From contig JBDTIR010000783.1 in assembly GCA_039936275.1 (NCBI GenBank), positions 1 to 28,325 on the forward strand: a stretch of DNA of 28,325 nucleotides, written 5' to 3'. The stretch comes from Isosphaeraceae bacterium. GTDB taxonomy: Bacteria; Planctomycetota; Planctomycetia; Isosphaerales; Isosphaeraceae. The translations under genes were made by a program, and so were the position numbers. Within the stretch, counting starts at the first letter, position 1. Every line of letters starts with the position of its first letter. The notes under the pieces are model-generated. The model was not told the origin of the DNA and ran no database searches. It worked only from the letters and a program-made list of their open reading frames with translations. Positions 11,304-28,325 of the stretch are shown one piece after another.

Positions 11304-11537
11304 GGGGAAGGTCTCCTCTTCTGCCCGTTGGACACCTGTGCGGAACCGTTCCCTTTAACATAACCCGTCCAATCGAGAAGGTCCAGAATTTTTATTGGAC
11401 GCATGAGGGCTTCAATGCTAGAAATATCCAGTGGCAATCCCGTTGAGGCGAGCCTGACGCCGTCATCCGGGGTGGCTTTTTGAACATGTTTGCGCCGGGC
11501 GATCGTCTGCTCCTCCTCCATCGAAAGGCAACCGCAC

Positions 11538-12575
11538 GTGAGCGACAGGACAACCCCTCGAGGCTTCACCCTGATTGAGCTCTTGGTCGTCATCGCCATT
11601 ATTGGCGTCTTGATCGCCCTGCTCTTGCCGGCTGTTCAAGCGGCGCGCGAAGCCGCACGCCGCGCCCAGTGTACCAACAATCTCAAACAAATGGGCCTCG
11701 GTCTGCACAACTATGAAAGCGTCGCCGGCGCATTCCCGCCGTCGAACGCCCTCTCGGGGACGGGCAATACCGTCGCCTGGACCAACGGGTTCAGCGTCCA
11801 CTGCCGCATTCTGCCGTTCATGGAACAAGGGGTCGCGTTCAATGCGCTCAACTTCAACTTCAATCACCTGAGCGCCACCAACGTCACCGTCGTCGGCATG
11901 GCGGTGAACAGCTTCGTCTGTCCGAGCGACGTCAACAAAGATAAACGCTCTCCATTCCCTCCGTTCACAGGCCTGACCGCCTCGGGAAGCGTCACCAGTT
12001 ATGGCTTCTCCGCGGGCGATTGGTTTGTCTGGAACGGCTTCAACCCGCCCGAAAATCGTGGGGCGTTCGGACCAAACCGCAGCCGCTCTCTGGCCGAATT
12101 CCAGGATGGAACCAGCCAGACCTTACTGGCCAGCGACGTCAAGGTTTACCAGCCCTACCGCCGTTGCAGTGCTCAACTGGCGAACATCAGCAACCCCAAC
12201 TCGGTCCCTTCGCCCATGGAGAATCCATTCACCGTCGCCCCGGAATACGGCAGTTCCAGTTGCAAGCTGGGCACGGATCACTCGCTCTGGGCCGACGGCA
12301 ACACGCACGAAACCGGCATGACTACCGCCTGGCCGCCTAATAAAGCCATCATCGGCCCCAACGGTGAGGGAGACCTCGACCTGGAGACGATCCTGGTTGC
12401 CTCGGGAGGGCCGAACTTTGCCGCCATTACGGCCAGAAGCTACCACTCCGGCGGCGTCAATACCCTGATGGCCGACGGCAGCGTCCGGTTCGTCAAGAGC
12501 ACCATCGCAGGCACAACCTGGCGAGCGCTCGGCACCGTGGCGGGGGGAGAGGTCGTCTCGTCCGACTCTTATTGA
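11538..12575 (+). CDS. DUF1559 prepilin-type N-terminal cleavage/methylation protein (divergent from the first)
   Basis: [52 protein letters not shown]9-DG (RSYHSGGVNTLMADGSV). GTG start at 11538 after GAAAGG. Confidence 0.95.
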   Translation: MSDRTTPRGFTLIELLVVIAIIGVLIALLLPAVQAAREAARRAQCTNNLKQMGLGLHNYESVAGAFPPSNALSGTGNTVAWTNGFSVHCRILPFMEQGVAFNALNFNFNHLSATNVTVVGMAVNSFVCPSDVNKDKRSPFPPFTGLTASGSVTSYGFSAGDWFVWNGFNPPENRGAFGPNRSRSLAEFQDGTSQTLLASDVKVYQPYRRCSAQLANISNPNSVPSPMENPFTVAPEYGSSSCKLGTDHSLWADGNTHETGMTTAWPPNKAIIGPNGEGDLDLETILVASGGPNFAAITARSYHSGGVNTLMADGSVRFVKSTIAGTTWRALGTVAGGEVVSSDSY

Positions 12576-12625: not shown

Positions 12626-12654
12626 CTGACATTCCCGCGCGGAGTGTGTATAAC
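12626..12654 (+). promoter_or_regulatory. Sigma70-type promoter of the oxidoreductase operon
   Basis: CTGACA (12626-31), 17-nt spacer, TATAAC (12649-54); 50 nt upstream of the first ATG. Confidence 0.6.
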
Positions 12655-12704
12655 CCTATCATTCAGGAGTGCGAGCCGCCGCGAGACCGGGAGACGATCC
12701 AAAA

Positions 12705-13815
12705 ATGCGATCCGAGCCGTCGCTCATGATGCCAGAACGGGATGCCGTCGTCTCGATCCTCTGGGGCCTTGCGGCGGCGGTCCTGCTGATGGTCGGAATT
12801 TATTTCGGCAGCCGCCGGTTCAAAGACTTCGATCCGGCCCTGGTCTCTTACGCGGGCGCGAGCGTGTTCGCGGTCTTCGGCCTTGGCTACCGCTACAGCA
12901 TGTGGCTGCGCCGGCCGCCCACGCAGCTTTACTGGTTCCGTGGCTGGCAGCTTTTCTGGTCGCCGAAGCGGCTCGCGGGCAACCTGGTTCACCTGGTCCG
13001 GCTCTTCTGGGACAATTTTGTCCGCCAGACCTTCATCGACCGTAGGTCGCACGCCCGTTGGGCTGCGCACTGGCTGATCGCCTGGGGATGCATCCTCGCG
13101 GCGGCGGTCACATTCCCCTTGTCGTTCGGTTGGGTCCGGTTCGAGACCCCCCGCGGCACCCAGGACGTCTACAACGCCTATGCGTTTGGCATTCACCTCT
13201 CGAGTTTTCGGCTCGATAGCTGGCTCGCCCCCCTTGACGTTCAACATCCTGGTCATCTCGTCGGCCATGGTGACTGCCGGGGTGGTTTTGGCGCTCTGGC
13301 GACGCGCCTTTGACGGCGGAGTGATCGCCGTGCAGCAGTTCGTCACGGATCTTTTACCCTTGATCCTGCTCTTCGCCGTGTCGGTAACAGGGGTCTTGCT
13401 CTCGGTCTCGTCCCGATGGTTGCACGGGTATCACTACGGATTTCTCTCGCAATTCCACGCCGTGACCGTGATCTTGACCCTGATTTACCTGCCGTTCGGG
13501 AAGTTCTTTCACATCTTTCAGCGACCGGCGCAGCTTGGCGTGGATTTCTACCGCCGCCAAGGCGTTGAGTCCGGCCAGGCGACCTGCGTCCGCTGCGGCC
13601 AAGGGTTCGGCTCCCGATTGCACGTCGCTGACCTCAAGGCCGTCGAGGCGAAATTGGGGATCGACTTCCGGCTTGGCGCCCAAGGTCATTACCAGGACGT
13701 CTGCCCCCCTTGTCGCCGCAAAAACCTTGGCCTGGTTCAAGATAGTCTCTGGCAACATGGGCCACGGCTCGACGCCAATGAGGAGGTCCATACCAGTGGC
13801 GCAGCAACCCGTTGA
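12705..13815 (+). pseudogene. NarI-like (cytochrome b type) polytopic membrane protein with C-terminal CxxC-x35-CxxC, split by one extra C in a C6 run (13228-13233); pseudogene or sequencing error
   Basis: Two overlapping hydrophobic ORFs (12669-13313, 13180-13815) join as ...WLAP/LTFNILV... if one C is removed, giving 369 aa. His residues in TM context ([23 protein letters not shown]) resemble NarI heme ligands. Confidence 0.75.
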
Positions 13816-16006
13816 CGCTGAGACGCTGATCGAACGGTTTGGACCTCATCCCAAGAACACGCCGCCGGGCGGCTGGTCGGCCGCTCTGGGATATGACCGC
13901 ATGGTGAAGACGCATTGCTGCTTTTGCGGCCAGCAGTGCGGCATCCAGCTCAAGGTGCGTGACAACAAGGTGGTCGGCTTCGAACCCTGGGAAGACTTTC
14001 CGTTTAATCGCGGCAAGCTCTGTCCCAAAGGGGTCAAACGGTACATGCAGGATGAGCATCCCGACCGCCTGACCAGCCCGCTTCAGCGCAAGGACGGCGT
14101 CGGCTTCGAGCCGATCTCCTGGGAAGCCGCACTGGACCGCACAGCTTCGGAAATCCGGAGGATTCAGGAGCGATACGGCCCCGACTCGTTCGCAATCCTC
14201 GGCGGCGCGTCCTTGACCAACGAGAAAGCGTACTTGATGGGCAAGTTCGCCAGGGTCGCCCTCCGCACGGCCAACATTGACTACAACGGCCGGCTGTGCA
14301 TGGTCTCGGCCGGCGCGGCCTGCAAGAAAGTCTTCGGCGTCGATCGCAACGCCAACCCTTGGAGCGATATCCCGCTTGCCGAGGCCATCCTCGTGGCCGG
14401 GGCCAACATCGCCGAGTGCGCCCCGATCACGACCGATTACCTCTGGCAGGCTCGCGAGCGTGGGGCCAAGATCATCGTCACCGACCCCCGAATGACCCCG
14501 ATCGCCAGAACGGTCGACCTGTTCATTCCGGTCAAGCCCGGCGGCGACATCGGCGTCTTCAACGGCATGCTCCATGTGATGATCGAGCGCGGCTGGATCA
14601 ACCGCGAGTTCCTCGCCAACCACACAACCGGCTGGGACGAGGTCGAGGAATCGGTACGAAAGTTCACACCCGAATACGCCTCGAAGATCGCCGGCGTGCC
14701 CGCCTCAATGATCGTCAAGGCCGCCGAAATCTGGGGGCCCGCCCGGACCAGCTTCCTGATGCACTCCCGAGGGATCGAACAGCACACCAAAGGGGTACAG
14801 AACGTCCTCGCCGCGCTCAATCTGGTGCTAGCCACCGGCCGGATCGGCCGTCCAGGCTGCGGCTACGCCATGATTACCGGCCAGGGGAACGGTCAAGGAG
14901 GGCGCGAGCAAGGCCAGAAGTGCGACCAGCTCCCCGGCTACCGAGACATCGAGAACCCCGAGCATCGCGCCTACATCGCCGAAGTCTGGGGCGTCCCCGA
15001 AGAGTCGATCCCCCACAAAGGGCTCTCCGCGGTGCCGATCCTCGAAGCCATCCATGAAGGCAAGATCAAGGGTCTGTTCTCGATCAGCTTCAACCCGATG
15101 GTCTCCTTGCCCGACCACCGTTACATCGCCGAGGCCCTCGGCAAGCTCGAATTCTTCGCCACGTGCGACTTCTTCCTGTCCGAGACCGCCTACCACGCCG
15201 ACGTCGTACTTCCCGGGTCATTGATCGAGGAGGACGACGGCACGACCACCAATACCGAAGGCCGGGTGATTCGCCATAAAAAGGTGGTTGATCCACCCCA
15301 AGGGGCTCGGGTGGACTGGCAAATCGTTTGCGAGATCGCGGCCCGCCTCGGCCACGCCGACAAGTTCCGCTACAATTCCCCTCGCGAGATTTTCGAAGAG
15401 CTGCGGGTCGCCTCCAAAGGGGGCGTATCTGACTATTCCGGCATCACCTGGGAGAAAATCGATGCGAACATGGGCGTCTTCTGGCCCTGCCCGAGCCTCG
15501 AACATCCCGGCACCCCCAGGCTCTACGAAGGGAATCGGTTCAACCACCCCGACGGCAAGGCGCACCTCCAGGTGGTTGACTGGCGGCCCTCGGCCGACGA
15601 GGTGGACGACGAGTACCCGATCATCCTGACCACCGGCAGGGTCGTGGCCCACTACCTCTCCGGCAACCAGACCAGGCGGATCGGCGGCCTCGTGGACCAG
15701 ACCCCCGAACCGTTCTGCGAAATCCACCCGAGGCTCGCCGAGCGGCTCGGCCTGGTGGAGGGCGACTTCGTAACGGTCGAGAGCCGCCGGGGTTCGATCA
15801 CGGTCCTCGCGAAAATCGTCAAGACGATTCGCCCGGACACCGTGTTCATCCCCTATCACTGGCCACTCAACCGCTCGGTGAACCACTGCACGCAACGGGC
15901 GATCGACCCGATCTCCAACATCCCTGAATTCAAGTATAGCGCCGTGCGCGTCACCAAGGCCGCGCCTTCCGATAATCCAATGGCCACAAGGGGGGCGTCG
16001 CGATGA
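13796..16006 (+). CDS. Mo-bisPGD oxidoreductase catalytic subunit, NasA/NapA nitrate-reductase-like
   Basis: N-terminal [4Fe-4S] motif [11 protein letters not shown]...GKLCPKG; Mo-ligand motif [10 protein letters not shown]; TNTEGR; [20 protein letters not shown] start at 13796 after AGGAGG; no signal peptide. The substrate is inferred. Confidence 0.88.
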
Positions 16007-16638
16007 GCGAGATGGTCTTCTACATGGACTACTCGCGGTGCATCGGCTGTCAGGCGTGCGTTCAGGCCTGCGCCGAATGCGACACGCACCGTGGACGGTC
16101 GATGATTCACCTTGAGACCATCCAGCGTCGTGAGAGCGTGCAGACCGCGCCCCAGGTCTGCATGCACTGCGAAGACCCGATCTGCGCCCGCGTTTGCCCG
16201 GCCGACGCGATCAAGCAGACCCCCGACGGCGTCACCCAAAGTTCGCTCACGCCGCGCTGCATCGGGTGCTCGAACTGCGTGCTGGCCTGCCCGTTCGGCG
16301 TGCCGAATTATTATGCCGAACTCGATCAGATGATGAAGTGCGACTATTGTTATGACCGGACGTCCGTCGGCAAGCGTCCGATGTGCGCGACGGTCTGCCC
16401 CTCAGGGGCCTTGGCGTTCATGACCCCCGAAGATTTCGCACAAACCCGGCGCGGGCACGCGATCAACGAGTGGACGTTCGGCAACGAGACGGTGCGAACC
16501 AAGGTCCGCGTGGTCGTCCCGCCTCAGGTCGAGCGAGTTCGGGTTGATCTTGTGCAGATCGGCGGGCTCGCGCCCCAAGCGGCTTCGACGGCGATCGTCG
16601 ATCCCGAAGACGTGGCCGCGATGCTTGAGGAGGTCTGA
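16003..16638 (+). CDS. Four-cluster 4Fe-4S dicluster electron-transfer subunit (DmsB/NrfC-like)
   Basis: [42 protein letters not shown]...CATVCP; ATGA overlap with the catalytic gene. Confidence 0.93.
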
Positions 16639-16643
16639 GCCAA

Positions 16644-17189
16644 ATGTCCATCGACGCCAAAAGCGAACCCGCCGCAGAACCCGTCGTCGGGCCAGAACCG
16701 GCCCGATGCCCGTTCCACCGCTGGGCTGAGGACTTCCCGATCGAGTGGGAGGCCGACCACTACGTCACCCGCCGCGAGTTGACGAAGTTCCTGACCCTGG
16801 GCTCGGGCCTACTCGTCGGAACGACCGCGGCGGTCGCCGTCGTCGGCCTGGTCGCCAAGCCCAGATCGTTTCCAGAGCGGAAGGTCGCTTCCGCGTCGGC
16901 CGTCGCCCCGGGGGGTTCATTGCTGTTCCGTTACCCGACCGACGAAGATCCGTGCATCCTGCTCAGAGATGCCGAAGGGGAGCTTCACGCATATTCCCAG
17001 GTCTGCACCCATCTCTCGTGCGCGGTGGTGCATCGACCCGATGATCAGGTCTTGTTCTGCCCATGCCATCATGGGTTCTTCTCGGATCGAGAGGGAACGG
17101 TGGTTGCCGGCCCTCCAACCCGTCGCTTGCCCAGGATCACGCTCGAGTTGCGAGGTGACGACGTTTTCGCCAAGGGTGTGGAGGTCTAA
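16644..17189 (+). CDS. Membrane-anchored Rieske [2Fe-2S] protein with a Tat-like twin-arginine motif
   Basis: CTHLSC and CPCH boxes; TRRELTKFL followed by a hydrophobic helix. Confidence 0.92.
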   Translation: MSIDAKSEPAAEPVVGPEPARCPFHRWAEDFPIEWEADHYVTRRELTKFLTLGSGLLVGTTAAVAVVGLVAKPRSFPERKVASASAVAPGGSLLFRYPTDEDPCILLRDAEGELHAYSQVCTHLSCAVVHRPDDQVLFCPCHHGFFSDREGTVVAGPPTRRLPRITLELRGDDVFAKGVEV

Positions 17190-17191
17190 CG

Positions 17192-17437
17192 ATGCGCGAT
17201 CGGCACCAAGGCACGATCCTGTTCACAGCCTTCCTCTGGCTCATCGGCATCTCGGTGGTGATCCAGTTGTGGCTGCTCGCCGCGGCGCTCGACGCGCTCT
17301 TGGCCGGTCATCGTGAGGTGCCGGTCTCAGCGGCGATCGCATCGCTGGTCTTGTTTCTCGTCAATGGCGGCTTGCTGATCTTTGTCCTGTCGTTTGACCG
17401 GCGGATTCGGCGCGCCGACGACGCCAAACGGAAGTAA
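17192..17437 (+). CDS. Small 2-TM membrane protein, DUF6755-like
   Basis: Two hydrophobic helices with VIQLWLLAAALDALLAG; 2-nt gap after the Rieske gene. Family assignment is from recall. Confidence 0.65.
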   Translation: MRDRHQGTILFTAFLWLIGISVVIQLWLLAAALDALLAGHREVPVSAAIASLVLFLVNGGLLIFVLSFDRRIRRADDAKRK

Positions 17438-17470
17438 TCCAGGCGTTTTGGCTCTCGGACCTCGACACTC

Positions 17471-18142
17471 TTGGACCTTCCCGCAGACGATTTCGAAATA
17501 AAAGCGAGGTTCCGGGTGCGGTCCGAATTCGTTCAACAAGGCAAGACGCGCTGGTTTCACCTCGCCGGGTTCGAACGTCGATTGGGCAAACGGCCAGCGC
17601 AGGCGTTCTTCGCCTTTGTCAACGGCCTGCTGTCGATCAGTCTGCTGGCCGCGCTCGCCATGTGGCGAGACCAGCCCTTGATCTTCCCATCGTTAGGGCC
17701 GACGGCGTTCTTGCTCTTCTATACCCCCTTGGCACCCGGGGCTTCGCCGCGTAACACCCTGTTTGGCCACCTGATCGCGGTCTTCTGCGGTTACGGCTCG
17801 CTGGTGCTCTTTGGTCTGACCGATGACGGCCCCGCCTTGATGACGGGCATCACCGAGGCGCGCGTGGGAGCGACCGCCCTCTCATTAGCGGCGACGGCGG
17901 GCTTGATGGTCTTGTTCTCGGTCGAGCACCCGCCAGCAGGGGCGACGACCTTGATCGTCTCGCTGGGCATCCTTCGCCACCCTCGCGAACTGGTCTCACT
18001 CATGGCGGCGGTCGTCTTGCTCTGCATCCAGGGGTGGGTCATTAACCGACTCGCCGGCATTCCGTACCCGCTCTGGCGCGCCAGGCCACCGAAGCAGGCC
18101 AATTCAGAGCCGGCTCAGCCGCCTGCCGGGTCCGTTCCTTGA
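17471..18142 (+). CDS. HPP-family membrane protein (putative nitrite transporter)
   Basis: IFPSLGPTAFLLF...ASPRNTLFGH and signature EHPPAGATTL; multiple TM helices; TTG start uncertain. Confidence 0.85.
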   Translation: MDLPADDFEIKARFRVRSEFVQQGKTRWFHLAGFERRLGKRPAQAFFAFVNGLLSISLLAALAMWRDQPLIFPSLGPTAFLLFYTPLAPGASPRNTLFGHLIAVFCGYGSLVLFGLTDDGPALMTGITEARVGATALSLAATAGLMVLFSVEHPPAGATTLIVSLGILRHPRELVSLMAAVVLLCIQGWVINRLAGIPYPLWRARPPKQANSEPAQPPAGSVP

Positions 18143-18170
18143 TCGACCTCTCAAAATCCACGAGTCCTCT

Positions 18171-18200
18171 CCACGATGGCCGCGTTCGCAACCGTCGTGG
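18171..18200 (+). terminator. Hairpin after the HPP gene, possible terminator (no U-tract)
   Basis: CCACGATGG (18171-79) pairs with CCGTCGTGG (18192-200), with one G-U pair. Confidence 0.3.
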
Positions 18201-18216
18201 GGTGGGTCGGCCAGGA

Positions 18217-18245
18217 CCTTTGAAAAAGGCGGCGCGTTTCAAAGG
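18217..18245. repeat. 9-11-9 inverted repeat CCTTTGAAA-N11-TTTCAAAGG, overlapping a 12-bp direct repeat AAAGGCGGCGCG (18225-36, 18241-52)
   Basis: Read directly from the sequence, just upstream of the putative Hsp70 operon promoter. Confidence 0.6.
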
Positions 18246-18261
18246 CGGCGCGAACCACTCT

Positions 18262-18291
18262 CTGCCATACCCTCTTCGCGACCATTACAAT
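18262..18291 (+). promoter_or_regulatory. Putative sigma70 promoter of the Hsp70 operon
   Basis: CTGCCA, 18-nt spacer, TACAAT. Confidence 0.4.
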
Positions 18292-18341
18292 AGAATGTCG
18301 GTTCGAGTGAATAACCGGATCGGGACGGTGGCAAGAGGTCT

Positions 18342-18356
18342 GTCCGCCGCGCGGAC
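18342..18356. promoter_or_regulatory. Palindrome GTCCG-N5-CGGAC, copy 1
   Basis: GTCCG CCGCG CGGAC, 47 nt before the Hsp70 start; same arms as the copy at 23163. Confidence 0.35.
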
Positions 18357-18403
18357 GTTCCCCCCACTTTTTTTTCGAAGACGATCGAAAGGGAGCCCAA
18401 GTC

Positions 18404-20071
18404 GTGAGCGACGGCCTGAAGCGCATTTTCGGGATCGACCTGGGGACGACCTATTCGGCGATCGCCTACGTCGATGAACACGGCAAGCCGGTCATCGTCC
18501 CCAACCAGGAAAGCGAGCGGATCACCCCCAGCGTGGTCCTTTTCGACGGCGACAACGTGATCGTCGGCAACACGGCCAAGGAGTCGGCGAAGGTCGAGCC
18601 CGACCGCGTCGTCGGCCGGGTCAAGCAACACATGGGCGACCCGCACTTTGTCTTCGAGCACGACGGCCAGGCGTACAGCCCGGAAGACGTCAGCTCATTC
18701 ATCCTCCGCAAGGTCGTCAGCGACGCCGAGGTCGCGCTCGGCGGCGACCCGATCACCGACGTCGTCATCACCTGCCCGGCTTACTTCGGCACCGACGAAC
18801 GCGAAGCCACCGCCAACGCCGGACGCCTGGCCGGCCTGAACGTGCGCGCCATCCTCAATGAGCCGACCGCCGCCGCGATCGCCTATGGCCTGGAACAGGC
18901 TGACGATCAGACCGTCCTGGTCTACGACCTGGGCGGCGGCACGTTTGACATTACGATGATCGAAATCAAAGACCGCTTGATTCGAGTCATTTGTACAGGC
19001 GGCGACCACCGACTCGGCGGCGCGCTCTGGGACGAGGCGATCGTCATGTACCTCGCCGACCAGTTCCGCCAGCAAACCGGCGTCGAAGCCGACCCGATGG
19101 ACGACCCCGAAGTCCTCAACGACCTGTTCCTCCAGGCCGAACGCGGCAAGAAAACCCTCACCCAGCGCGACAAGGCCCCCTTCCGCGTCACCCACGCCGG
19201 ACAGCAAGCCAGGGTCGAGCTCGACCGGATCAAGTTCGAGGAAATTACTCGACACCTGCTCGACCGCACCATTGAACTGACCCGCGACATGCTCAACGAC
19301 GCCAAGGCGAAAGGGGCCGAACGGTTCGACAAGATCATCCTCGTCGGCGGTGCGACCCGCATGCCCCAGGTCCGCGATCGGCTCGTTAATGACTTCCGTA
19401 TTGAGCCCGAAGTCTACGACCCCGATGAAGCGGTGGCCAAAGGGGCCGCGCTCTTCGGCCTCAAGGAAGCGCTTCAGGATCAGGTCCGAGAGATCATCGC
19501 GCCCAACCATCCTGAGGGCGACGCCGACCACGACGAGATTGACCTGGCGGCCATCAGTGAGGCCGAAATCAGCGAAGCGCTCGACCGGATCGAGCAGACG
19601 ACCGGGTTCACCCTCACCGGTCCTGTGCGCGAGCTGGTCAGTACCCAGATCGTCAACGTGCTCTCAAAAAGCCTCGGCGTCGTGGCGAGGAACGAAGAGG
19701 GCAAGGACGTCGTCGTTTACCTCTTGCCCCGCAACAGCGAGGTGCCGATGGAGCAAACGGCCGACTTCGGCACCGACCAACCCAACCAGGAAGGGGTCGA
19801 GATCCAGGTCATGGCCGGTGAGCGCGACAGCCCAGACCCACTCGACTGCAAGGACGTCGGCACCGCGACGCTCAACCTGCCCCCGGCCTTGCCCGCGCGA
19901 AGCCCGGTGCGCGTGACCTTCGCCATCAGTCGCGACGGCCGCCTCGACGTCTCGGCCGTGGACCTGACCGGCGGCGGCTCGATCCACGTCGAGTTCGAGA
20001 CCGAGGCCGTGATGCGCGCCGACGAGGTCGCCGAACGCTCGACGGCCCTGCGCCTCTTGAACGTGTCTTGA
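18404..20071 (+). CDS. Atypical Hsp70-family protein (555 aa, no helical lid, long linker insertion)
   Basis: [40 protein letters not shown]; SBD-beta-like C-terminus ends shortly after the last strand. Confidence 0.93.
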   Translation: MSDGLKRIFGIDLGTTYSAIAYVDEHGKPVIVPNQESERITPSVVLFDGDNVIVGNTAKESAKVEPDRVVGRVKQHMGDPHFVFEHDGQAYSPEDVSSFILRKVVSDAEVALGGDPITDVVITCPAYFGTDEREATANAGRLAGLNVRAILNEPTAAAIAYGLEQADDQTVLVYDLGGGTFDITMIEIKDRLIRVICTGGDHRLGGALWDEAIVMYLADQFRQQTGVEADPMDDPEVLNDLFLQAERGKKTLTQRDKAPFRVTHAGQQARVELDRIKFEEITRHLLDRTIELTRDMLNDAKAKGAERFDKIILVGGATRMPQVRDRLVNDFRIEPEVYDPDEAVAKGAALFGLKEALQDQVREIIAPNHPEGDADHDEIDLAAISEAEISEALDRIEQTTGFTLTGPVRELVSTQIVNVLSKSLGVVARNEEGKDVVVYLLPRNSEVPMEQTADFGTDQPNQEGVEIQVMAGERDSPDPLDCKDVGTATLNLPPALPARSPVRVTFAISRDGRLDVSAVDLTGGGSIHVEFETEAVMRADEVAERSTALRLLNVS

Positions 20072-20081
20072 GGAATCATTC

Positions 20082-20753
20082 ATGAGCACTGCAATCGGAT
20101 TCCCGGTCAAGCCGGCCGAAGGCGAGCGCCGGTTCGTGCTTCAAGGCGTCGGCTGGGACGGCTACCAGGCGCTCCTGGCCCTCGTCGCGGACCAAGGGGT
20201 CCGTCTGACCTACGACCGGGGGAAGATCGAACTCATGTCGCCACTTTGGATTCACGAGCGATACAAGAAACTTTTCGCGTATATCATTGAGGCAATCACC
20301 GATGAACTTGATCTACCCAGGGTTGCCGCCGGCGCGTCAACGTTTAACAGCCAGGCGCTAGACCGTGGACTGGAGCCCGACGAATGTTATTACCTCGCGA
20401 GCGCCGCGATGCTCCGGCAGACCGATCGGATCGATTTGGCAATCGATCCACCGCCGGACCTGGCCATTGAAATCGAAATCACTCGAAGCGCCCTTGATCG
20501 CCCGGGCATCGATGCGGCCCTGGAGGTCCCCGAAGTCTGGAGATATAACGGTGAGTCGATTCGCGTTCTGCTCCTCGGACCGGATCGAACCTACGCCCTC
20601 TCTGAGACCAGCCGGGCGTTTCCATTCTTGCCGATGGCGGAGATCGAGCGGTTCTTGCATGACCACGACCCGAACAATGATACCCGCTGGGGCCGGGCCT
20701 TCCGCGCCTGGCTCCGCAGGGAGATCGTGCCAAGAGTGAGGGGCGAACGTTGA
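20082..20753 (+). CDS. Uma2-family (DUF820) PD-(D/E)xK endonuclease-like protein, possibly degenerate
   Basis: RLTYDRGKIELMSP...LEPDECYY...PPDLAIEIE...VPEVWRY. Confidence 0.9.
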   Translation: MSTAIGFPVKPAEGERRFVLQGVGWDGYQALLALVADQGVRLTYDRGKIELMSPLWIHERYKKLFAYIIEAITDELDLPRVAAGASTFNSQALDRGLEPDECYYLASAAMLRQTDRIDLAIDPPPDLAIEIEITRSALDRPGIDAALEVPEVWRYNGESIRVLLLGPDRTYALSETSRAFPFLPMAEIERFLHDHDPNNDTRWGRAFRAWLRREIVPRVRGER

Positions 20754-20820
20754 ACCAAGGCAATCTGATTGACCTTGAGCCAGCCTCCAGAACGGGGCGA
20801 CGGCCTGAGAGGACCTGCCG

Positions 20821-23149
20821 ATGAGAATTCGCAAAGGCGTGACGCTCGCTCTCTGGCTCACGTTGGCGCTCGTGGTTGGTGGAACCCTCTTCATTCGATT
20901 AAGAGGGCGGTTACAGCTAGAAACCACCAAGAGCCGATGGTCGAGCGGCCTGGCGAACCTGCACACTCCGAACAAGAACGCTCGGCTAGCCGCGGCGCGG
21001 CAGTTGAACGCCCTGGTCCGGAAGCAGCGAAACGCCATACCCGGGTGGACCTCCTTCGATCCGACGACCCGGGCCGATTTCCAGTACATGGTCGGACTCG
21101 TCGCTGATCCCCTGGTCGACCCGACGACCCGGGAAATCCTGGCCGAGGTTGCCGCGAACCAAGAGTTCAGAGAACTGCCCGAAGAGGTGATGTTCCCCTT
21201 AACATCGGTCCTCATTGATGAGTCGGAGCCAACCCGCTTACGTTGCGCCATCGCTCGCCACGCCGTGCCCGCCGCCCAGAGAGAACCGTTTCGAGATGCG
21301 GTCCTCGCCACCTTGTCAAGCAAGGATGACGCGGTGCGCCATCTGGCGTATCTGACGCTTGCATCACTGCCAATCGATGCGGAAACCCTCGCGCCGCTCC
21401 TGAACCATGGTCTGAGCGACCCCGTTCCCTCAATCCGATTCCAGGCCGCCCAACAGGCTCAAAGTCTGGCGAACCGGGGAGACCGAACCGCCGTTGGGCT
21501 CCTGCTGCGCGCCGCGAAGGACCAGGACGAGAGCGTGCAAAAAATCGCAAGGAGCGCGATCGAACACCTCGGCCCCGTGCCGGCCGAGACCGCCCCCGAC
21601 CTGATCGCGGCCCTCGACGACGCCGGCCCCAGGCTGCGGATCGCCCTGGCGTCCGGACTACTCCAAACGACTGGGCAGGTCGATCTCTATGCTCCGATCT
21701 TGATTGACGGCCTGCGATCAAACGACCTGGAGACCTGGCAGACCGCGTCCATGACGCTCTGGAGAATCGGTCGCCACCCTGAAATGCAGTCGCGAATCCT
21801 TCAAGACTTGACCATCCATGCTGGGCAAGTCCGACGACCAGTTCCGCGACCGGGCCGGACTGACCTTGGCGATGGCGGCCGGAGACTCCGACGCTTACAA
21901 GCCCTACATCGCCAACGGGCTTCGCTCGAACGACCAGGACTTGAGGTCCTGGGCCTTGATGGCGGCGTCCATGACCCAGATGCGAACGCAGTCGGGCCCA
22001 CAAACAGGCCCGACACGTCTGATCGTGCAACGCGGCCTGGTCCTCATCGCCGTGATCTCTGCGCTCGCCATGATCGGTCTCTTCATCCAACTCGCACTCT
22101 CGGCCACGAGGACAAAGACTCGACCGTCCGCCCCCGACCCTGCTCCTGCCCCCACCCCCAAGCGGATCTTTGTCTTGAACTATCCCCGACGCATCCAGCT
22201 CCGGCCGATCGCCGAGCCGACCTGGACCGACCCGACGGCGATCGCCGAGCAGGTCGAAGCGCTCCAGGGGCTCAACTTCTCCGACGTCGGCCCGTTCGAA
22301 ATCGCCGATTTACCGGGGGTCCGACTTTGGGGACTGGTCAACCCGACCAGGGCGATCACCGCGGCCGTTCAAGATCACCCTGAATGGGGAATCTTCCTTG
22401 TCTTGAAGACCGTCTATCAGGACGGAACAACGTATCGCCAGACCAGCACTCACCGCCTCGACCGCCCCGACCAGCGACCGGGGCACGAGTTCGTTTATGT
22501 CGAAGCGACCGACATTCCTGCACGTCTTGCCCGGTTCCTCGCCGAGCGGCCCGATCGGCCGATGCGGCCGGTCGCTTTGAATGAGTTCGCAGCGGACTTC
22601 GAGCGCGACCACGCCGACACCGTTGATTGGCGGTTCGCCCGGGGGACCATGACCGATCGGGAAATCCGCGATCTGAATCAGGTGAAAGGAAACGAAGTCA
22701 CCAATGCGCAGGTCGCCGAACTTCGCCACAAACTTATCCAGAAAGGGAACAGCGAACTCGATAAGAGCCTCCGCGAACGGTTCCTTGACAGTCGCCGATT
22801 AACCGGCGAGGAGCGAGCGAAACTCGGCCCGTCCCTGGTCATCGTCCACGACGCCTTACCGGTTGTTTGGGTCTGGGAATGGTTCCCAACGCTGATCGAT
22901 GACGAATTCCACGCCGAGAACCGGGTCAAGGAGTCGGCCCTTTATGACGAATCGCTCGATGGCGAATCCGCGCCCGACCAAGCTCCATCGTGGCAAACCT
23001 TGCCGCCTCGTCTGTCCTTCGTCGCGCTCAATGAACGGTTAGGCCCGGAAGCCCGCTTCGAGAAACTCGGCGCGCTGGACTGGCCGATCGAGGCCGACGT
23101 CTACATGCCACAGGCGGAATTGGCATCGGTTGAGCACGACGTGACATGA
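20821..23149 (+). pseudogene. Membrane-anchored HEAT-repeat protein with an unknown C-terminal domain, split by a 4-bp CCAT duplication at 21812-21819
   Basis: ORF 20821- carries a TM and HEAT repeats (GLSDPVPSIRFQAA, AAKDQDESVQKIA, GLRSNDLETW). ORF 21818- continues the same repeat type (LGKSDDQFRDRA, GLRSNDQDLR), then a second TM. Removing one CCAT restores ...LTMLGKSDD. Confidence 0.7.
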
Positions 23150-23162
23150 TGGCGCGAACGAC

Positions 23163-23177
23163 GTCCGGGGGTCGGAC
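23163..23177. promoter_or_regulatory. Palindrome GTCCG-N5-CGGAC, copy 2
   Basis: GTCCG GGGGT CGGAC, 29 nt before antitoxin 1. Confidence 0.35.
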
Positions 23178-23206
23178 CGCTTCAAATTCAGGATCGGTGC
23201 GGAACA

Positions 23207-23485
23207 ATGGATACGATGAAGAACGAGGAGGCCACGGCGACGGTTCGGTTCGATGGCGAGACGCTTCATCCATTGACACCGCTCGATCTGGTCCCCGATG
23301 CAATTTACGAAATCACGATCAAGGCGCGACACAAACCGGAATCGGAAGGCACTCTCTGGGAATTGCTCGAGGAATTGGCGGGCACGGTGGACGGACCAAG
23401 CGATTGGACCACGGAGCATGACCACGACTTCCACGGCACTCCCAAACGAGAACAAGGCCCCGACGCAATCATCAAAAGGGGGTAA
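23207..23485 (+). CDS. Antitoxin-like protein 1 (AF2212/DUF104-like)
   Basis: VRFDGETLHPLTPLDL N-terminus and GPSDWTTEHDHDFHGTPK C-terminus; colinear with antitoxin 2. Confidence 0.75.
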   Translation: MDTMKNEEATATVRFDGETLHPLTPLDLVPDAIYEITIKARHKPESEGTLWELLEELAGTVDGPSDWTTEHDHDFHGTPKREQGPDAIIKRG

Positions 23486-23490
23486 TCATC

Positions 23491-23736
23491 ATGAATAAAA
23501 CGTTAACAGTCATCTTCGATGGTGAGGTCTTCCGGCCCCGGGAACCTGTGAATTTGACGCCCAACTCGCAGTGTGTCATCGTAATCCAATCCGTGGCCGC
23601 TCCGACCAAGTCGGCGAACGCCTGGGACGTCCTGGACAAGTATACCGGGTCGATTGAGGGGCCGGGCGATTGGTCCGCCGAACACGACCATTATCTGTAT
23701 GGGACCCCGAAACGGTCCTCGGAGGGGCCGGTGTGA
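23491..23736 (+). CDS. Antitoxin-like protein 2 (AF2212/DUF104-like), cognate of VapC
   Basis: VIFDGEVFRPREPVNL and GPGDWSAEHDHYLYGTPK; GTGA overlap with the toxin start. Confidence 0.82.
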   Translation: MNKTLTVIFDGEVFRPREPVNLTPNSQCVIVIQSVAAPTKSANAWDVLDKYTGSIEGPGDWSAEHDHYLYGTPKRSSEGPV

Positions 23737-24149
23737 GCGGGGGACGCTTGTTCTTGGACACCGCGTTTGTGCAAGCCTTGCTCGATCGCCGCGACCAGTA
23801 TCATGCCAGGGCGCAAGCCATACGGCCACGTCTGGATTCGGCGATCGAAATTTGGATCACGGAGGCGTTGCTGATCGAGATTGGCAACGCTCTGAGCGTC
23901 TTGAACCGCTCGGCCGCCTCGGAATTTATCGAAATGTGTTATGAAACAACGAATATATCCGTCGTCCAGGTCGATACGGCCCTGCTCATACGATCGCTTC
24001 AACTCTATCAATCACGTCTCGACAAGACCTGGGGCCTGACCGATTGTATTTCGTTCGTGATGATGCGCGAGCACGGCCTGACCGAGGCCCTGACTTCCGA
24101 TTCGCATTTTGTTCAGGCGGGATTCCGGGCCTTGATGCTGGAGGAATAG
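23733..24149 (+). CDS. vapC: VapC-type PIN-domain ribonuclease toxin
   Basis: [37 protein letters not shown] carry the acidic PIN catalytic residues; GTG start overlaps the antitoxin stop. Confidence 0.92.
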
Positions 24150-24153
24150 AGGT

Positions 24154-26214
24154 ATGTCCAGGTTCGTCGGGATTGATCTGGGAACGACCAACTCGGTCGT
24201 GGCGTCGCGCAACGCCTACGGTCGGCCCGAGGTCATCCCGAACCGGGACGGGCAGAACGTCACGCCTTCGGTCATTTATTTCGGCACCGAACCCCCCGCG
24301 ATCGGCCAGGAGGCGAAGGAATGGGCGCGGTTGGGCAACGAGGAGGTCGCCAGTTTTTTCAAGCCGCACATGGGCAGTCCGCTTTACCGGCTTCAATTCC
24401 ACGGCCGCGATTATGACGCCACCGGCCTTTCCGCGATGATCCTCGCCAGGCTCAAGGAGGACGCCGAAACCAAGCTGGGCGGGCCAGTCACACAAGCCGT
24501 CATCACTGTGCCGGCCTATTTCGCCGACGCTCAGCGCAAGGCCACCATCGACGCCGGCCGTCTGGCAGGTCTCGACGTCTTGAGGATCATCAATGAGCCG
24601 ACCGCAGCCGCGTTGGCCTACGGACTCCAGCAATCCGGCGTGACCGAGACCGTCTTGATCTACGACCTCGGCGGCGGCACGTTTGACGTCACCGTCGCCA
24701 GGATCAATCCCGACGAGGTCGCCGTGCTCGCCACGGCAGGCGATCACGACCTGGGCGGCAAGAACTGGGACGACCGGATCGCCACCTTCCTCGCCGAGAA
24801 GTTCGCCGCCGAGACCGGCATTGATCCACTTGACGACCCGATCGCGCTTCACGAGGTCCTCGTCCGAAGCGAGCAGGCGAAATGGACCCTCTCGGAACGG
24901 AGTTCAGCCCGCGTCACCTTGCAGCTTGGCACCGAGCGTCGAGGATATGAGTTGACCCGCAACGAGTTTGAAGGGATGACCTTCCCTTTGATGGACCGCA
25001 CCCGCAGACTCACCGAGGAGGCCCTTGAGGAAGCGTCCCTGTCCTGGAAGGACCTTGCCGGCGTCTTGCTGGTGGGCGGATCGACACGGATGCCGATGGT
25101 CCGTCAGTACGTCACCCAGATGGCTGGCCAACCCCCAAGGGCCGGCGTGAACGTGGATGAAGTGGTCGCCCTGGGCGCGGCGATTCAGGCGGCGATGGTG
25201 ACTGGGGAGGTGTTGGGAGACGCCCGCCCCGCGTTCACGCTCGTCGGCGCTCGGCGGATCAAGGACGTGATGTCGCACAGCCTGGGCGCCGTCGCCGTCA
25301 GCCCTGACGGCACGCGCTATGTCAATGACATCGTGATCCGACGCAACCAGGCGATCCCGGCCGAGAACACGACCACATACCTGCACGCCACCCACGGCGG
25401 GGCCAACGACCGGCTCGAAGTTTACTTGACCCAGGGGGAAAGCCCCCAGCCGCTCGATTGCTCAATCTTGGGAAAATACGTCTTCAACGGCATTCAAGCC
25501 ACTGATGCCGACGTGATGATCGACTTGTCGATGTCCTACGACGTCAACGGCGTCGTCCAGGTCCAGGCCGTTCAGCGCGACACGCTCAAGACCTTGCCGA
25601 TGACCGTCGAACCAGTGCCCGACGATCTGTCATGGCTCGGCCTGCCACCGCAATCCTCAACGACCGAAGGCCCGCGCGAGCCGATCCGGGTTTACCTCTT
25701 GATCGACGGCTCATCGAGCATGGCCGGCCCTCCGCTCGACGAGGCGCAAGCCGCCGCTCGCGCTTTTCTGGAAACCTGCGACTTCACCTCGACCGAGGTC
25801 GGCCTGATTTCCTTTTCCGACGAGGTCACGCTTCAGGCCGAGGCGACCGACAACGCCCGCCGAGTGCTGGCCGCCATCGTCAGGCTCACCGCCGACGGCA
25901 CGACCAACCTGGCCGACGCCCTCATCTTGGCCAGGGAAAAGCTGGCCGAGGCCGATCGCGCCCGTTACATTGTCTTGTTGACCGACGGCTACCCGGACGC
26001 CACCGAGGCCGCCGTCTGGGAAGCGGCGCTCTGCCGAGAGAACGGCATCCAGATCGTCGCCATCGGCATCGGCGACGCCGACCGAGACTACCTCAGACGC
26101 CTGGCAAGCACCGAAGCCGGGTCGATCTTTACCAGACAAGGCGAACTGGTCCAGACCTTCGGCCACATCGCCCGCGTCATCGCGCAAGGCGGTAAGGCGT
26201 TACGGATTCAATAA
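24154..26214 (+). CDS. Hsp70 (NBD + SBD-beta) fused to a C-terminal VWA domain
   Basis: [40 protein letters not shown], then VWA with MIDAS DGSSS, GTTN and LLTDG, and VAIGIG. Confidence 0.93.
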
Positions 26215-27120
26215 ATGAACCGTCCAGAGCGCGGAGAGGACGCTAAATTGAAACAGAAACCGATCTCAATTCGTTATCAGAACCTGAGACATGCCTATGG
26301 AATGGCGCTGTCGAGTGCGTTCGGGGCGGTCTGCGGCCTCTATTTGTATGTCGAGCTGGTGAAGGTCAATAATCTCTGGGTCAGGGACGCGGCGGCGGGG
26401 GCCTTGATCGGCGGCTCGATCGGCTTCGTGGTCAATGCGGCTGGCCCGTTTCGCGACGGCGCCTGGCTGAAGCTGGCGAGGGCCGCCACCTGGGGGACCT
26501 TGGCCGGCTCGGCTGGCGGGGCGATCGGGCTCCTGATCGGTGAAGGCGTGCTGGGCGGTTTGAAAGGGGGGACGCTCGGGCGGGCCGTCTCGTGGGCGAT
26601 CCTCGGCCTTGGGATCGGTGCCAGCCAGGGAATTGCCGACCGTTCGATGCAGCGGCTCACGTTCGGCCTGATCGGCGGAGGGCTCGGCGGGTTCCTCGGC
26701 GGGTTCCTGTTCGAGCAGTTGCGCGACCGCCTGGGGAACCGCTATGACGTCAGCCAAGGGGTCGGCATGGTGGTTCTGGGCCTGGGGCTTGGGCTCTGTC
26801 TCGCGTTGGTGGAACAGGCCTTGCGCCGGGCCTGGGTCGTCGTGCTCCAAGGGCGTCAGGAAGGCCGCGCCTACTTGCTGGCCAGGAGGGTCTCCGCCTT
26901 GGGGCTCGATGAGCGCGCCGAGGTCGGACTCTTTGGCGACCCGACCATCGCTCGACGCCACGCCGAGATTGAACAAGCAGGCCCTGGCTACGTTCTGCAC
27001 AATCACGACGCCCAAGGGCGGACTCGCGTCAACGGCGAACTCTTGACCGGCCCGCAACCCTTGCGCGACGGCGACAGGATCGAGCTCGGACAGACCTTGC
27101 TGGTCTTCCGACAGCGCTAG
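26215..27120 (+). CDS. Gly-rich multi-TM membrane protein with a C-terminal degenerate FHA domain
   Basis: About six GxxxG-rich helices, then ARRHAEI...TRVNG...LRDGDRIELG (FHA fold). TAAATG junction with the Hsp70-VWA gene. Confidence 0.85.
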   Translation: MNRPERGEDAKLKQKPISIRYQNLRHAYGMALSSAFGAVCGLYLYVELVKVNNLWVRDAAAGALIGGSIGFVVNAAGPFRDGAWLKLARAATWGTLAGSAGGAIGLLIGEGVLGGLKGGTLGRAVSWAILGLGIGASQGIADRSMQRLTFGLIGGGLGGFLGGFLFEQLRDRLGNRYDVSQGVGMVVLGLGLGLCLALVEQALRRAWVVVLQGRQEGRAYLLARRVSALGLDERAEVGLFGDPTIARRHAEIEQAGPGYVLHNHDAQGRTRVNGELLTGPQPLRDGDRIELGQTLLVFRQR

Positions 27121-27147
27121 CGCAGCCCCAAAGAGGAGTTCCCCTGG

Positions 27148-28325
27148 ATGACGGCAGCGAGGGTGGACGGCTGGTCCCTGGAAGTCGTGCGAGGCAAAGA
27201 CCTCGGGCGCGTCTATGCCTTGAACGGCGAGGCGGTCGTGCTCGGCAACGATCCAGGGCCAGGGCCCGGCATCAACCTGGCCGACCAAGAAGGGAATTCT
27301 CCCAGGCGGATGGCGGCGAACCAGGCCAGGCTCGACTGCCTCGACGGTGCCTTGGTCGTTCGCGACCTCGACAGCCCTGGCGGCACGTTTATCAACCGTC
27401 AACGCTTGCTCCCGGACCAAGCTCGCCCTTTGAGCGCCGGGGACGTCATCCAGCTTGGCGGCGTGCAACTGCGGCTCGTCGCCGCTTCGAAATCGCCCCC
27501 TATGTCCGCGCCGCCTTTGCGCCCGCCAACCGTGTCCGCATCGGGTCCGATCAACCTTCGCTTACCTTCGGGCACAACCTGCCGATCCTGGGACGACGTC
27601 CTCGCCATCTCGGCGCAGCGCTGGAATGAGCTGCGCGACGACTTGACCACGGGCCGCCTGGCGGCGTCCTTGATCGCGATCGGCCAAGGGGCCTTGGCCC
27701 CGTCTCCAGAGACGCCGGGCTCACCCGACGAACGGCTCGACGCCTGGATCGCCTCCTTACCGACGACCAGGGCGAGCACGCCTGATCTGGACCTGCACCC
27801 GGCAACCCTGACCGTCAGAGCCACGCCAGGCGGAGCAACGACCAGGCGCAAGGTCCGCGTCGCCAACGTCGGCTATCGCCTGCTCCGAGCCACCGCTCGG
27901 ATTGAGCCGGACGGAACCCCCTGGCTCACCATCGCGCCTGGATTCGCCGGCAAACCGTTCGTGACGGCCGAAGGAATCGACCTGCCGATCGACGTCACCA
28001 GCCCAGAATCCTTCACGGGACCACTCTCGGCCGCCCTGGTCGTCGAAAGCAACGGCGGCACGCGCCGGGTCAAGGTCGTGCTGGAACCCCCTGCCCCGAC
28101 CGGAGAGCCGTTCGAGACCGAGCCGCCAACGAGTCGAGAATCGGACCTCAACGCCCGCTTGGCCCGTCTCTCGGTTCCGACCCGCTTGATCACCGCGAGC
28201 CTGATCGCGGCGGGGCTCCGCCTGGTGATCGCCCTTGTCGCTGGATCGTCGGCCTTGAGCCTTACCCCGATCAGTGTGGTGCTTGCCCTGGTCGGCCTGT
28301 TGGCAGGCGCTCTCGTGGCCTGGCG
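27148..28325 (+). CDS. 3'-truncated protein: degenerate FHA, helical domain, BACON/Ig-like domain, TM helices
   Basis: Open from ATG 27148 (SD AAGAGGAG) to the window end with no stop; hand-translated, absent from the ORF track. FHA: VRDLDSPGGTFIN...LSAGDVIQLG. Ig-like: VRVANVG...PWL...VESNGGTRRV. Hydrophobic helices begin at ~28190. Confidence 0.82.
   Translation, partial: MTAARVDGWSLEVVRGKDLGRVYALNGEAVVLGNDPGPGPGINLADQEGNSPRRMAANQARLDCLDGALVVRDLDSPGGTFINRQRLLPDQARPLSAGDVIQLGGVQLRLVAASKSPPMSAPPLRPPTVSASGPINLRLPSGTTCRSWDDVLAISAQRWNELRDDLTTGRLAASLIAIGQGALAPSPETPGSPDERLDAWIASLPTTRASTPDLDLHPATLTVRATPGGATTRRKVRVANVGYRLLRATARIEPDGTPWLTIAPGFAGKPFVTAEGIDLPIDVTSPESFTGPLSAALVVESNGGTRRVKVVLEPPAPTGEPFETEPPTSRESDLNARLARLSVPTRLITASLIAAGLRLVIALVAGSSALSLTPISVVLALVGLLAGALVAW

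Follow-up and report, generated by a model that had tools for sequence, protein, structure and literature searches.

A conserved Rieske- and DUF6755-containing gene set as a candidate quinol-linked nitrate reductase of the NasC type in an Isosphaeraceae bacterium and other bacteria

The window analysed here is a 28,325-nucleotide stretch of DNA from an Isosphaeraceae bacterium (phylum Planctomycetota; contig JBDTIR010000783.1 of assembly GCA_039936275.1), and at positions 12705–18142 of its forward strand it carries six co-directional genes whose junctions overlap or almost abut (Table 1). Five of the encoded proteins, namely a molybdenum-containing catalytic subunit, a four-cluster ferredoxin, a haem-b membrane anchor, a Rieske [2Fe-2S] protein and a small protein of the family DUF6755, rather likely form a quinol-linked nitrate reductase that faces the cytoplasm, is built on a NasC-type subunit and would reduce nitrate to nitrite with electrons from menaquinol. 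The complex is widespread and apparently unstudied. An initial annotation of this DNA had already recognised the six tightly coupled genes, and coordinates and junctions agree with it; it had proposed a quinol-linked reductase of nitrate or of some other oxyanion, of which the quinol-linked part is supported and the second choice of substrate is now less favoured than nitrate.

The domain identity of each of the six gene products was confirmed by Pfam and NCBIfam. The catalytic subunit contains the Pfam families Molybdop_Fe4S4, Molybdopterin and Molydop_binding, and its best NCBIfam model is NasC (NF047855) with 829.9 bits, below the equivalog cut-off of 1100 that none of five planctomycete copies exceeds. 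The alpha subunit model of formate dehydrogenase (Fdh; TIGR01591) gives 655.3 bits at a cut-off of 666.25, the large subunit of arsenite oxidase (TIGR02693) gives 162 bits at a cut-off of 359, and narG (TIGR01580) gives 48.8 bits at a cut-off of 1084.15, so that the protein is not of NarG type. An N-terminal [4Fe-4S] motif (CxxCxxxC...C) is present, and the cysteine ligand of molybdenum (Mo) lies in GRLCM at residues 165–169. The NasC match, this motif and an alignment all bear out the earlier assignment to a NasA/NapA-type subunit with its cysteine in GRLCM. Aligned with annotated nasA, NasC, napA, fdhF and fdsA, the window protein reads NGRLCM and ITGQGNGQ, which is the Nas/Nap signature, whereas the Fdh rows read ARVCH or ARLCH and VRGQNN or FRGQNN; the His and Arg of the Fdh enzymes are Met and Thr here. 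A twin-arginine (RR) motif was found at the N-terminus in none of 77 orthologs, and the window protein carries a conserved N-terminal extension of about 35 residues.

In a maximum likelihood tree of 37 sequences with annotated references, all operon-linked catalytic subunits fall into one clade of their own (support 100/100). This clade adjoins a Paenibacillus NasC, which is encoded beside nirB, in a 100/99 group with a Deinococcus nasA, and stands apart from the FdhF/FdsA clade (100/99), NapA and the proteobacterial NasA; the deeper order of the tree is uncertain owing to long branches. Phylogeny had been put forward in the initial annotation as a check, and its outcome is that the catalytic subunits lie outside both FdhF and ordinary NasA; the genes for the partner subunits, moreover, accompany them in nearly every case. 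As the best sequence matches of the subunit in the PDB are Fdh enzymes, a formate dehydrogenase was considered as a candidate; it was rejected on the active-site residues and the tree.

The gene set is found far beyond the Isosphaeraceae. When one genome per species was scanned, a relative of the anchor was present in at least 510 species genomes, mostly of Acidobacteriaceae/Terriglobales, with further carriers in Vicinamibacterales, Myxococcota, Actinomycetota, Limnocylindrales and a betaproteobacterial metagenome-assembled genome. Among the carriers are Anaeromyxobacter oryzae Red232, whose genome is complete, and an isolate, Edaphobacter aggregans DSM 19364, in which no NarG was found; the set is also encoded on Deinococcus megaplasmids, for instance in Deinococcus wulumuqiensis NEB 479. 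Two GlnR-induced molybdopterin oxidoreductases of Mycobacterium smegmatis, MSMEG_4206 and MSMEG_6816, were considered as possible members of the family. A tblastn search of 80 fetched loci recovered the catalytic subunit in 80, the ferredoxin in 74, the Rieske protein in 74 and DUF6755 in 72, most misses lying at contig ends, and the junctions between the genes mostly overlap or are a few bases apart. The anchor gene occurs in 56 of the 401 sampled Acidobacteriota genomes. Among 301 sampled Planctomycetota genomes, DUF6755 was found in 10, the window's genome counted, and of 11 loci fetched from other planctomycete genomes, nine show recognisable anchor, catalytic, ferredoxin and Rieske genes next to it, with the gene order unchanged. 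Such conservation of gene order is far beyond chance. The window's catalytic subunit and anchor fall among copies from Acidobacteria, myxobacteria and actinobacteria, apart from five other planctomycete copies (58–64% vs. 46–50% identity for the anchor), and since its proteins are closer to non-planctomycete copies, a lateral acquisition of the operon by the Isosphaeraceae is suggested.

Over 4,000 relatives of the anchor at 60–70% identity are present in the protein collection, where they are called “hypothetical” or “nitrate reductase gamma subunit” or bear the incorrect name “MFS transporter” (MFS, major facilitator superfamily). In Deinococcus wulumuqiensis the RefSeq names are “MFS transporter,” “molybdopterin oxidoreductase family protein,” “4Fe-4S dicluster domain-containing protein,” “Rieske 2Fe-2S domain-containing protein,” and “DUF6755 family protein,” in line with the initial remark that similar clusters are annotated only generically. 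Its author also knew of no biochemical characterisation, and our full-text literature search, outside which most subscription journals lie, returned neither a description of the complex nor a mention of DUF6755. As a side observation, the free-standing haem-b anchor of 345–370 residues is named “MFS transporter” by the NCBI pipeline (e.g., in Deinococcus wulumuqiensis pDrdI 326808–343045, locus L129), a label that was probably carried over from natural fusions of a NarK-like porter with the anchor such as L136:485-2878 (797 residues).

The genes next to the conserved core point to nitrate. A porter of the NarK family is encoded in 64 of the 80 loci and an HPP protein, as in the window, in eight, never both. 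The NarK-family porters match TIGR00886 at 210–224 bits and are translationally coupled to the operon; in the nearest relative with a long contig (L024, catalytic subunit 79% identical) an MFS porter stands exactly at the position of the window's HPP gene, in another locus (L028) HPP follows DUF6755 as in the window, and the Deinococcus neighbour is named “nitrate/nitrite transporter” in RefSeq. The window's HPP protein (PF04982, TM_HPP) scores 93.4 bits at a cut-off of 27.2 and is, by its family, a putative transporter. The initial call of an HPP transporter thus holds as a family match and not as a member of the conserved core. For cyanobacteria and plastids, a role of HPP proteins in the transport of nitrite is cited (Maeda, 2014, through PMC7438415).

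Further neighbours concern the fate of nitrite. In the planctomycete genome G245 the five genes are directly preceded by genes for a sigma54 activator, NirB (the match of 798 bits exceeds the cut-off) and NirD, with amtB and glnD nearby. A purely assimilatory role was considered for the complex as a whole, and it is not general: linkage to nirB was seen in G245 alone, and the 80 loci, most of them acidobacterial, show no case of it. The same G245 locus (L022; G245:C17:57500-74500) has an IS701 transposase directly after the operon, and its DUF6755 match is weak (33 bits). Clustering of open reading frames (ORFs) in the acidobacterial loci (L049–L128) gave as recurrent neighbours ScdA/RIC, Crp/Fnr regulators, NnrS, hemerythrins, qNor, NapC/NirT, multihaem cytochromes, CLC channels and MOSC proteins, and RIC, NnrS or qNor were present in 32 of 80 loci. 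In these loci the operon is frequently part of a nitrogen-oxide island, and a radical-SAM protein in 10 loci, a MOSC protein in six, and hemerythrin-PAS proteins were also noted there. These neighbours point to a dissimilatory use in many Acidobacteria. NarG was found in none of five planctomycete carriers examined. In the window's genome (label G000), a planctomycete assembly of 832 contigs that is 78% complete, the NasC model has no match at E ≤ 1e-30 other than the operon's catalytic subunit, one siroheme protein of the NirA family is encoded, and no NarG, NirB or NrfA was found; in this organism nitrite probably enters assimilation through the NirA-family enzyme. Because of the NarK or HPP linkage, the nitric oxide (NO)-stress genes or nirBD nearby and an active site with the signature of Nas and Nap, nitrate is favoured over another oxyanion as the probable substrate.

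The membrane anchor has six predicted helices. Its score on Pfam Nitrate_red_gam (PF02665) is borderline (23.1 bits, cut-off 22.9), and NCBIfam gives weak QmoC and TcuB matches over the last helices. In a wide VIA-align search, the AlphaFold2 model (predicted local distance difference test score 72.7) matched Mycobacterium smegmatis EtfD (9ojn_A) with Z 11.7 over 203 residues, NarI (1q16_C) with Z 10.3 over 187 residues and FdnI with Z 8.2, all three being dihaem cytochromes b, and values of 10–12 being modest for helical bundles; a Foldseek comparison of the model with the PDB gave no match at E ≤ 0.001, only noise of the G-protein-coupled-receptor type. The “NarI-like cytochrome b” of the initial annotation hence depends on a borderline Pfam score together with this fold match. 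Residues H122, C129, H251, H269, C294, C297, H328, C333 and C336 are invariant, and H251 and H269 are 18 residues apart, like H187 and H205 in helix 5 of NarI (numbering of 1Q16). Clearly accounted for by the sequences is only one bis-His haem (H122 and H269). Natural fusions of a NarK-like MFS porter to the anchor (797 and 741 residues) were found in a wider genome search and in none of the 80 fetched loci. The C-termini of MFS porters are cytoplasmic, and the fusions therefore place the N-terminus of the anchor, and hence also its C-terminal tail with four cysteines (the Cys4 tail), in the cytoplasm.

The ferredoxin matches Pfam Fer4_11 (65.5 bits) and related families, and scores 84–91 bits on the NCBIfam models for FDH-beta, DmsB and HybA, all under their cut-offs, and 31.8 bits on narH (TIGR01660; cut-off 524.05), so that it is not of NarH type. 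Its 16 invariant cysteines are arranged in four groups of the CxxCxxCxxxC type, and together with the Fer4_11 match they agree with the four-cluster subunit of DmsB/NarH type that was first proposed. The Rieske protein scores 49.5 bits on Pfam Rieske, and its best NCBIfam match is the small subunit of arsenite oxidase (TIGR02694) at 51 bits, the cut-off being 95.65. It consists in order of an acidic N-terminal extension, the segment TRRELTKFL, one transmembrane helix and a bc/AioB-type domain. The cluster boxes CTHLSC (121–126) and CPCHHG (139–144) are present, and C121, H123, C126, C139, C141 and H142, the disulfide Cys pair included, are invariant in 25 orthologs. With these boxes, the disulfide pair and the helix, the membrane Rieske protein of AioAB or bc complexes that the initial annotation had described is well recognisable. 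R43 and R44 are invariant, and RRx followed by two hydrophobic residues was found in 75 of 77 orthologs; a weakly to moderately hydrophobic segment comes after RR, and basic residues prevail in the flank behind the helix, which is the pattern of a twin-arginine translocation (Tat) signal anchor, export being a prediction. The conserved acidic peptide before RR has a median length of 36 residues and includes DFPIEWE.DHYV. The small protein with two helices noted at the outset is DUF6755 (PF20540; 55.3 bits, cut-off 27).

Anchor, ferredoxin, DUF6755 and Rieske protein were folded together from alignments of 19–25 orthologs, and the Rieske chain was scored. A structure prediction of the five redox and membrane subunits had been suggested as a check, and in the four-chain prediction made here the Rieske interface exceeds the controls: ipSAE was 0.77 (0.74–0.79 in three runs) vs. 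0.50 for the best control. The ipSAE mark is reached by 58 of 80 solved complexes and by two of 110 mismatched pairs, counts that are rough here as own alignments were used. On the Rieske side the predicted interface comprises the N-terminal peptide, the helix and both cluster-binding loops. The helix lies against DUF6755, which touches the Rieske chain along both of its own helices, and against anchor helix 2, and further predicted contacts involve loops on both anchor faces, the Cys4 tail and ferredoxin residues 59–74. The model supports the view that the Rieske protein is a membrane-spanning subunit of the complex.

A path of electrons through such a complex can be proposed as follows. The haem-b anchor with its six helices would oxidise menaquinol at its outer face, and there the tip of the Rieske [2Fe-2S] domain, probably exported by its twin-arginine anchor, would dock on the outer loops. 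The electrons would then traverse the membrane via the anchor haem or haems and enter the four-cluster ferredoxin at the inner face, where the ferredoxin would be held by the Cys4 tail of the anchor together with the conserved N-terminal peptide of the Rieske protein. From here they would pass to the [4Fe-4S] cluster and on to the Cys-ligated Mo-bis(pyranopterin guanine dinucleotide) (Mo-bisPGD) site. DUF6755 would be packed against the Rieske helix, and the product of the sixth gene, which is HPP in the window and NarK in most relatives, would carry nitrate or nitrite through the membrane. We further propose, tentatively, that the Rieske tip, once exported, and the anchor's outer face may jointly make up a Qo-like site for menaquinol oxidation from which a NasC-type nitrate reductase in the cytoplasm is supplied, which would be a third, energy-conserving architecture for the respiration and assimilation of nitrate.

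Several points weigh against a quinol-linked nitrate reductase of this form. The complex is known from genes, alignments and predicted models, every equivalog model scores under its cut-off, and the first gene is frameshifted in the assembly as deposited. We know of no solved precedent for a Rieske domain outside the membrane combined with a catalytic dimer inside. Only three membrane histidines of the anchor (H122, H251, and H269) are universally conserved; the position of the expected fourth haem ligand, NarI's partner His to H251, is an invariant Ala, and some clades have lost H243. For a second, outer haem there would thus be a single conserved His, and the path across the membrane is incomplete on paper. 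The predicted complex was folded with an intact anchor (P0001, 88% identical) in place of the window's broken one and leaves out the catalytic subunit, and its interface is given without residue pairs, so that the two halves of the Rieske protein are not assignable to sides of the membrane. Finally, one planctomycete carrier (G156) has a separate canonical pair of nirB and a NasA-type gene elsewhere, which means that the complex is not simply “the” assimilatory enzyme.

The Rieske domain might lie in the cytoplasm (N-out, C-in) as an extra redox centre between ferredoxin and anchor, which would remove the topology puzzle. The invariant RR, the weakly hydrophobic segment and the basic c-region form a classic Tat arrangement that this placement would leave aside, and the invariant disulfide Cys pair is typical of exported bc-type Rieske proteins; to our knowledge, cytoplasmic Rieske ferredoxins lack this pair. 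The distribution of charges would nevertheless suit it, as the N-terminal flank and extension are net negative (mean K+R 4.5 vs. D+E 7.3) and the C-terminal flank is net positive (3.2 vs. 1.0), and so would the ferredoxin residues of the predicted interface, which adjoin a cluster-binding motif as for a redox contact. On balance, we regard a cytoplasmic Rieske domain as rather doubtful.

It has also to be considered whether the catalytic subunit, ferredoxin and Rieske protein are assembled in the cytoplasm and then co-exported via Tat on the Rieske anchor, in which case nitrate would be reduced in the periplasm and HPP or NarK would import nitrite. The near-universal RR of the Rieske protein with its basic flank and bc-type disulfide cysteines, as well as its best match to the small subunit of arsenite oxidase, are what such hitchhiking would look like; AioA has no signal peptide of its own, rides on AioB and reportedly descends from Nas enzymes (PMC7331816), and the link of HPP proteins to nitrite transport (PMC7438415) would fit as well. 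Nonetheless, with the acidic peptide before RR and the predicted contacts with both anchor faces and the ferredoxin, a membrane-spanning tether fits better than a cleaved or passive signal, and the Cys4 tail of the anchor is cytoplasmic and at the predicted interface. In addition, NarK-type porters are coupled to the operon in most loci and even fused to the anchor, and linkage to NarK is a hallmark of cytoplasm-facing Nar enzymes. Co-export of the catalytic subunit is improbable in our judgement.

A different reaction is quite improbable; in its favour is that all equivalog models stay under their cut-offs. Chlorate, selenate, tellurite or iodate could be the substrate, or nitrite or arsenite could be oxidised, with the nitrate-related neighbours coincidental or secondary; the Rieske partner is reminiscent of arsenite and iodate enzymes, and enzymes of the Nap/Nas clade can be promiscuous (PMC12769810). 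What speaks for nitrate instead is the Nas/Nap active-site segment with its Cys ligand, which is absent from AioA (PMC7331816), a NarK or HPP gene linked to the operon at 72 of the 80 loci, the nirBD genes joined to it in G245 and the NO-stress genes in 32 of the 80 loci, and the neighbour clusters that recur contain no genes for arsenic, selenium or chlorite.

The frameshift noted above affects the anchor gene, which in the window is split over two overlapping frames (12654–13313 and 13078–13815), whereas it is a single ORF of 355–370 residues in relatives. The break lies at a run of six C at 13228–13233. In a Logan contig of the likely source run, in which 95% of the stretch is contained, this site reads five C and the frame is intact, and with one C dropped a 369-residue anchor results in which ...WLAPLTFN... 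is restored as in the intact relative P0001. Because this independent assembly does not have the extra C, the frameshift is probably an assembly error. The same contig has A in place of G at 13001, and other homopolymer errors in the assembly are possible. That the operon is a decaying pseudogene cluster in this organism, as the split frame might suggest, is very improbable given the intact Logan frame, the five remaining intact genes, the family-invariant residues kept across both anchor halves and the fact that errors in homopolymer runs are common in assemblies.

The coordinates of the operon are collected in Table 1.

Table 1. Genes and promoter-like element of the operon; positions are those of the window.
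Feature	Position	Strand	Basis
Promoter-like element: CTGACA (12626–12631), 17-nt spacer, TATAAC (12649–12654)	12626–12654	+	Read by eye
Membrane anchor: six-helix NarI/EtfD-like cytochrome b module with C-terminal CxxC...H...CxxC knuckle	12705–13815	+	Pfam, NCBIfam, AlphaFold2 fold
Catalytic Mo-bisPGD subunit: NasC clade, 736 residues, no signal peptide	13796–16006	+	Pfam, NCBIfam, tree, alignment
Four-cluster [4Fe-4S] electron-transfer subunit (ferredoxin): DmsB/FdhB type, 211 residues, no signal peptide	16003–16638	+	Pfam, NCBIfam, 16 Cys
Membrane-anchored Rieske [2Fe-2S] protein: 181 residues	16644–17189	+	Pfam, NCBIfam, motifs
DUF6755 protein: 81 residues, two transmembrane helices, fifth conserved subunit	17192–17437	+	Pfam
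HPP-family membrane protein: 223 residues, TTG start, variable sixth gene	17471–18142	+	Pfam TM_HPP

The catalytic gene starts with GTG, 9 nt past GAGGAGG, and overlaps the stop of the anchor gene by 20 nt; the catalytic and ferredoxin genes share an ATGA overlap, and the following gaps measure 5 nt (ferredoxin to Rieske), 2 nt (Rieske to DUF6755) and 33 nt (DUF6755 to HPP). The promoter-like element lies about 50 nt 5' of the first start codon and agrees with the consensus at 10 of 12 positions, its role as promoter being putative. A strict sigma70 scan, which demands T at position 6 of the -10 element and so passes over TATAAC, found no promoter 5' of 12705, and a strict scan 3' of HPP found no terminator-like site. 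The initial claim of an own sigma70 promoter is accordingly weak, and of the initial description of this region the six genes and their placement stand, the first gene being frameshifted in this assembly. Directly 5' of the operon, positions 11490–12575 (+) encode a DUF1559 protein with an N-terminal methylation motif of a type typical for planctomycetes, and no link of this gene to the operon was seen in the loci of relatives. A 112-residue ORF at 18139–18477 that overlaps the end of HPP has no family match, is rich in Arg with a low-complexity look and is probably not a gene. The genes at 18404–28325, which start with a lidless Hsp70-like ATPase after a gap of 261 nt from HPP, are a separate system.

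Genome and metagenome surveys score the catalytic gene as an ordinary soluble assimilatory nitrate reductase (nasA/narB), and genome surveys thus probably file the enzyme under the wrong process; in the present gene set it always comes with a membrane electron chain and, in many soil Acidobacteria, lies among genes of NO stress and nitrite reduction. If it is a quinol-linked nitrate reductase, estimates of which organisms in soils and peat respire nitrate and which assimilate it need revising, DUF6755 gains a function, and the published rule that the Nas/Nap/Aio/Fdh clade never uses four-cluster and anchor subunits is contradicted (PMC7331816). If the Qo-like site proposed above is also real, the architecture would be widespread in soil Acidobacteria and would be a living link from Nas to the Rieske-bearing arsenite and iodate enzymes. 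The strict either-or of HPP and NarK offers a handle on the cargo of bacterial HPP proteins, and as cultured carriers exist, direct testing is possible. Added by the present analysis are the resolution of the frameshift, the count behind this either-or, a nirBD-joined operon in a planctomycete, a tree with annotated references and the evidence for lateral acquisition of the Isosphaeraceae copy.

The initial annotation held that the operon matches neither NarGHI, NapAB nor NasAC, and the NCBIfam scores are in accord. With NarGHI and NarK of Escherichia coli (1Q16) it shares a signal-less catalytic subunit, a four-cluster ferredoxin, a haem-b anchor with the 18-residue His spacing of NarI helix 5, and a NarK-type porter. 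NarG has about 1,240 residues and an Asp ligand to Mo, NarH has about 500 residues, and NarI has four haem-ligand His on two helices. The window's catalytic subunit, by contrast, belongs to the Nas/Nap/Fdh clade with 736 residues and Cys at the ligand position, its ferredoxin has 211 residues and the low narH score of 31.8 bits, and its anchor has six helices with a Cys4 tail and three of the four expected haem-ligand His conserved. No gene for a NarJ chaperone is present in the operon, and the Rieske protein and DUF6755 are extra subunits.

NasC of Bacillus and Paenibacillus (with NasB/NirB) is the nearest sequence family and the sister clade, and the [4Fe-4S] motif, NGR(L/F)CM and an 11-residue segment are common to both. 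The fixed partners are different: ferredoxin, cytochrome b, Rieske protein and DUF6755 here, and not a soluble NADH flavoprotein (cf. locus L130). No member of the Nas/Nap/Aio/Fdh clade is described as associated with canonical four-cluster or membrane-anchor subunits (PMC7331816). AioAB and the iodate reductase IdrAB likewise combine a signal-less catalytic subunit of the MopB type with a small Rieske protein that has a twin-arginine signal and the disulfide pair. They differ in that the Cys ligand of Mo is conserved here and AioA has no amino-acid ligand (PMC7331816), that Aio is periplasmic and soluble and works without four-cluster ferredoxin, cytochrome b or DUF6755, and that the window's Rieske protein stays below the cut-off of the AioB model.

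The anchors of EtfD, QmoC, TcuB, HdrE and DsrM are similarly membrane haem-b modules with a cytoplasmic Cys-containing part. In our case this part is no ferredoxin or CCG domain but a short CxxC...H...CxxC knuckle, and the anchor has a molybdoenzyme as its partner. The archaeal pNar enzymes of haloarchaea and Methanoperedens have a NarG-type subunit with a Tat signal that faces outward and a bc1-type cytochrome b. Their gene sets, too, encode a nitrate reductase together with a Rieske protein (NarB) and a cytochrome b (NarC) (PMC2483277, PMC8301774, PMC4683180), and the present gene set is distinguished from them by its NasC-type catalytic subunit without signal peptide and its NarI/EtfD-like cytochrome b.

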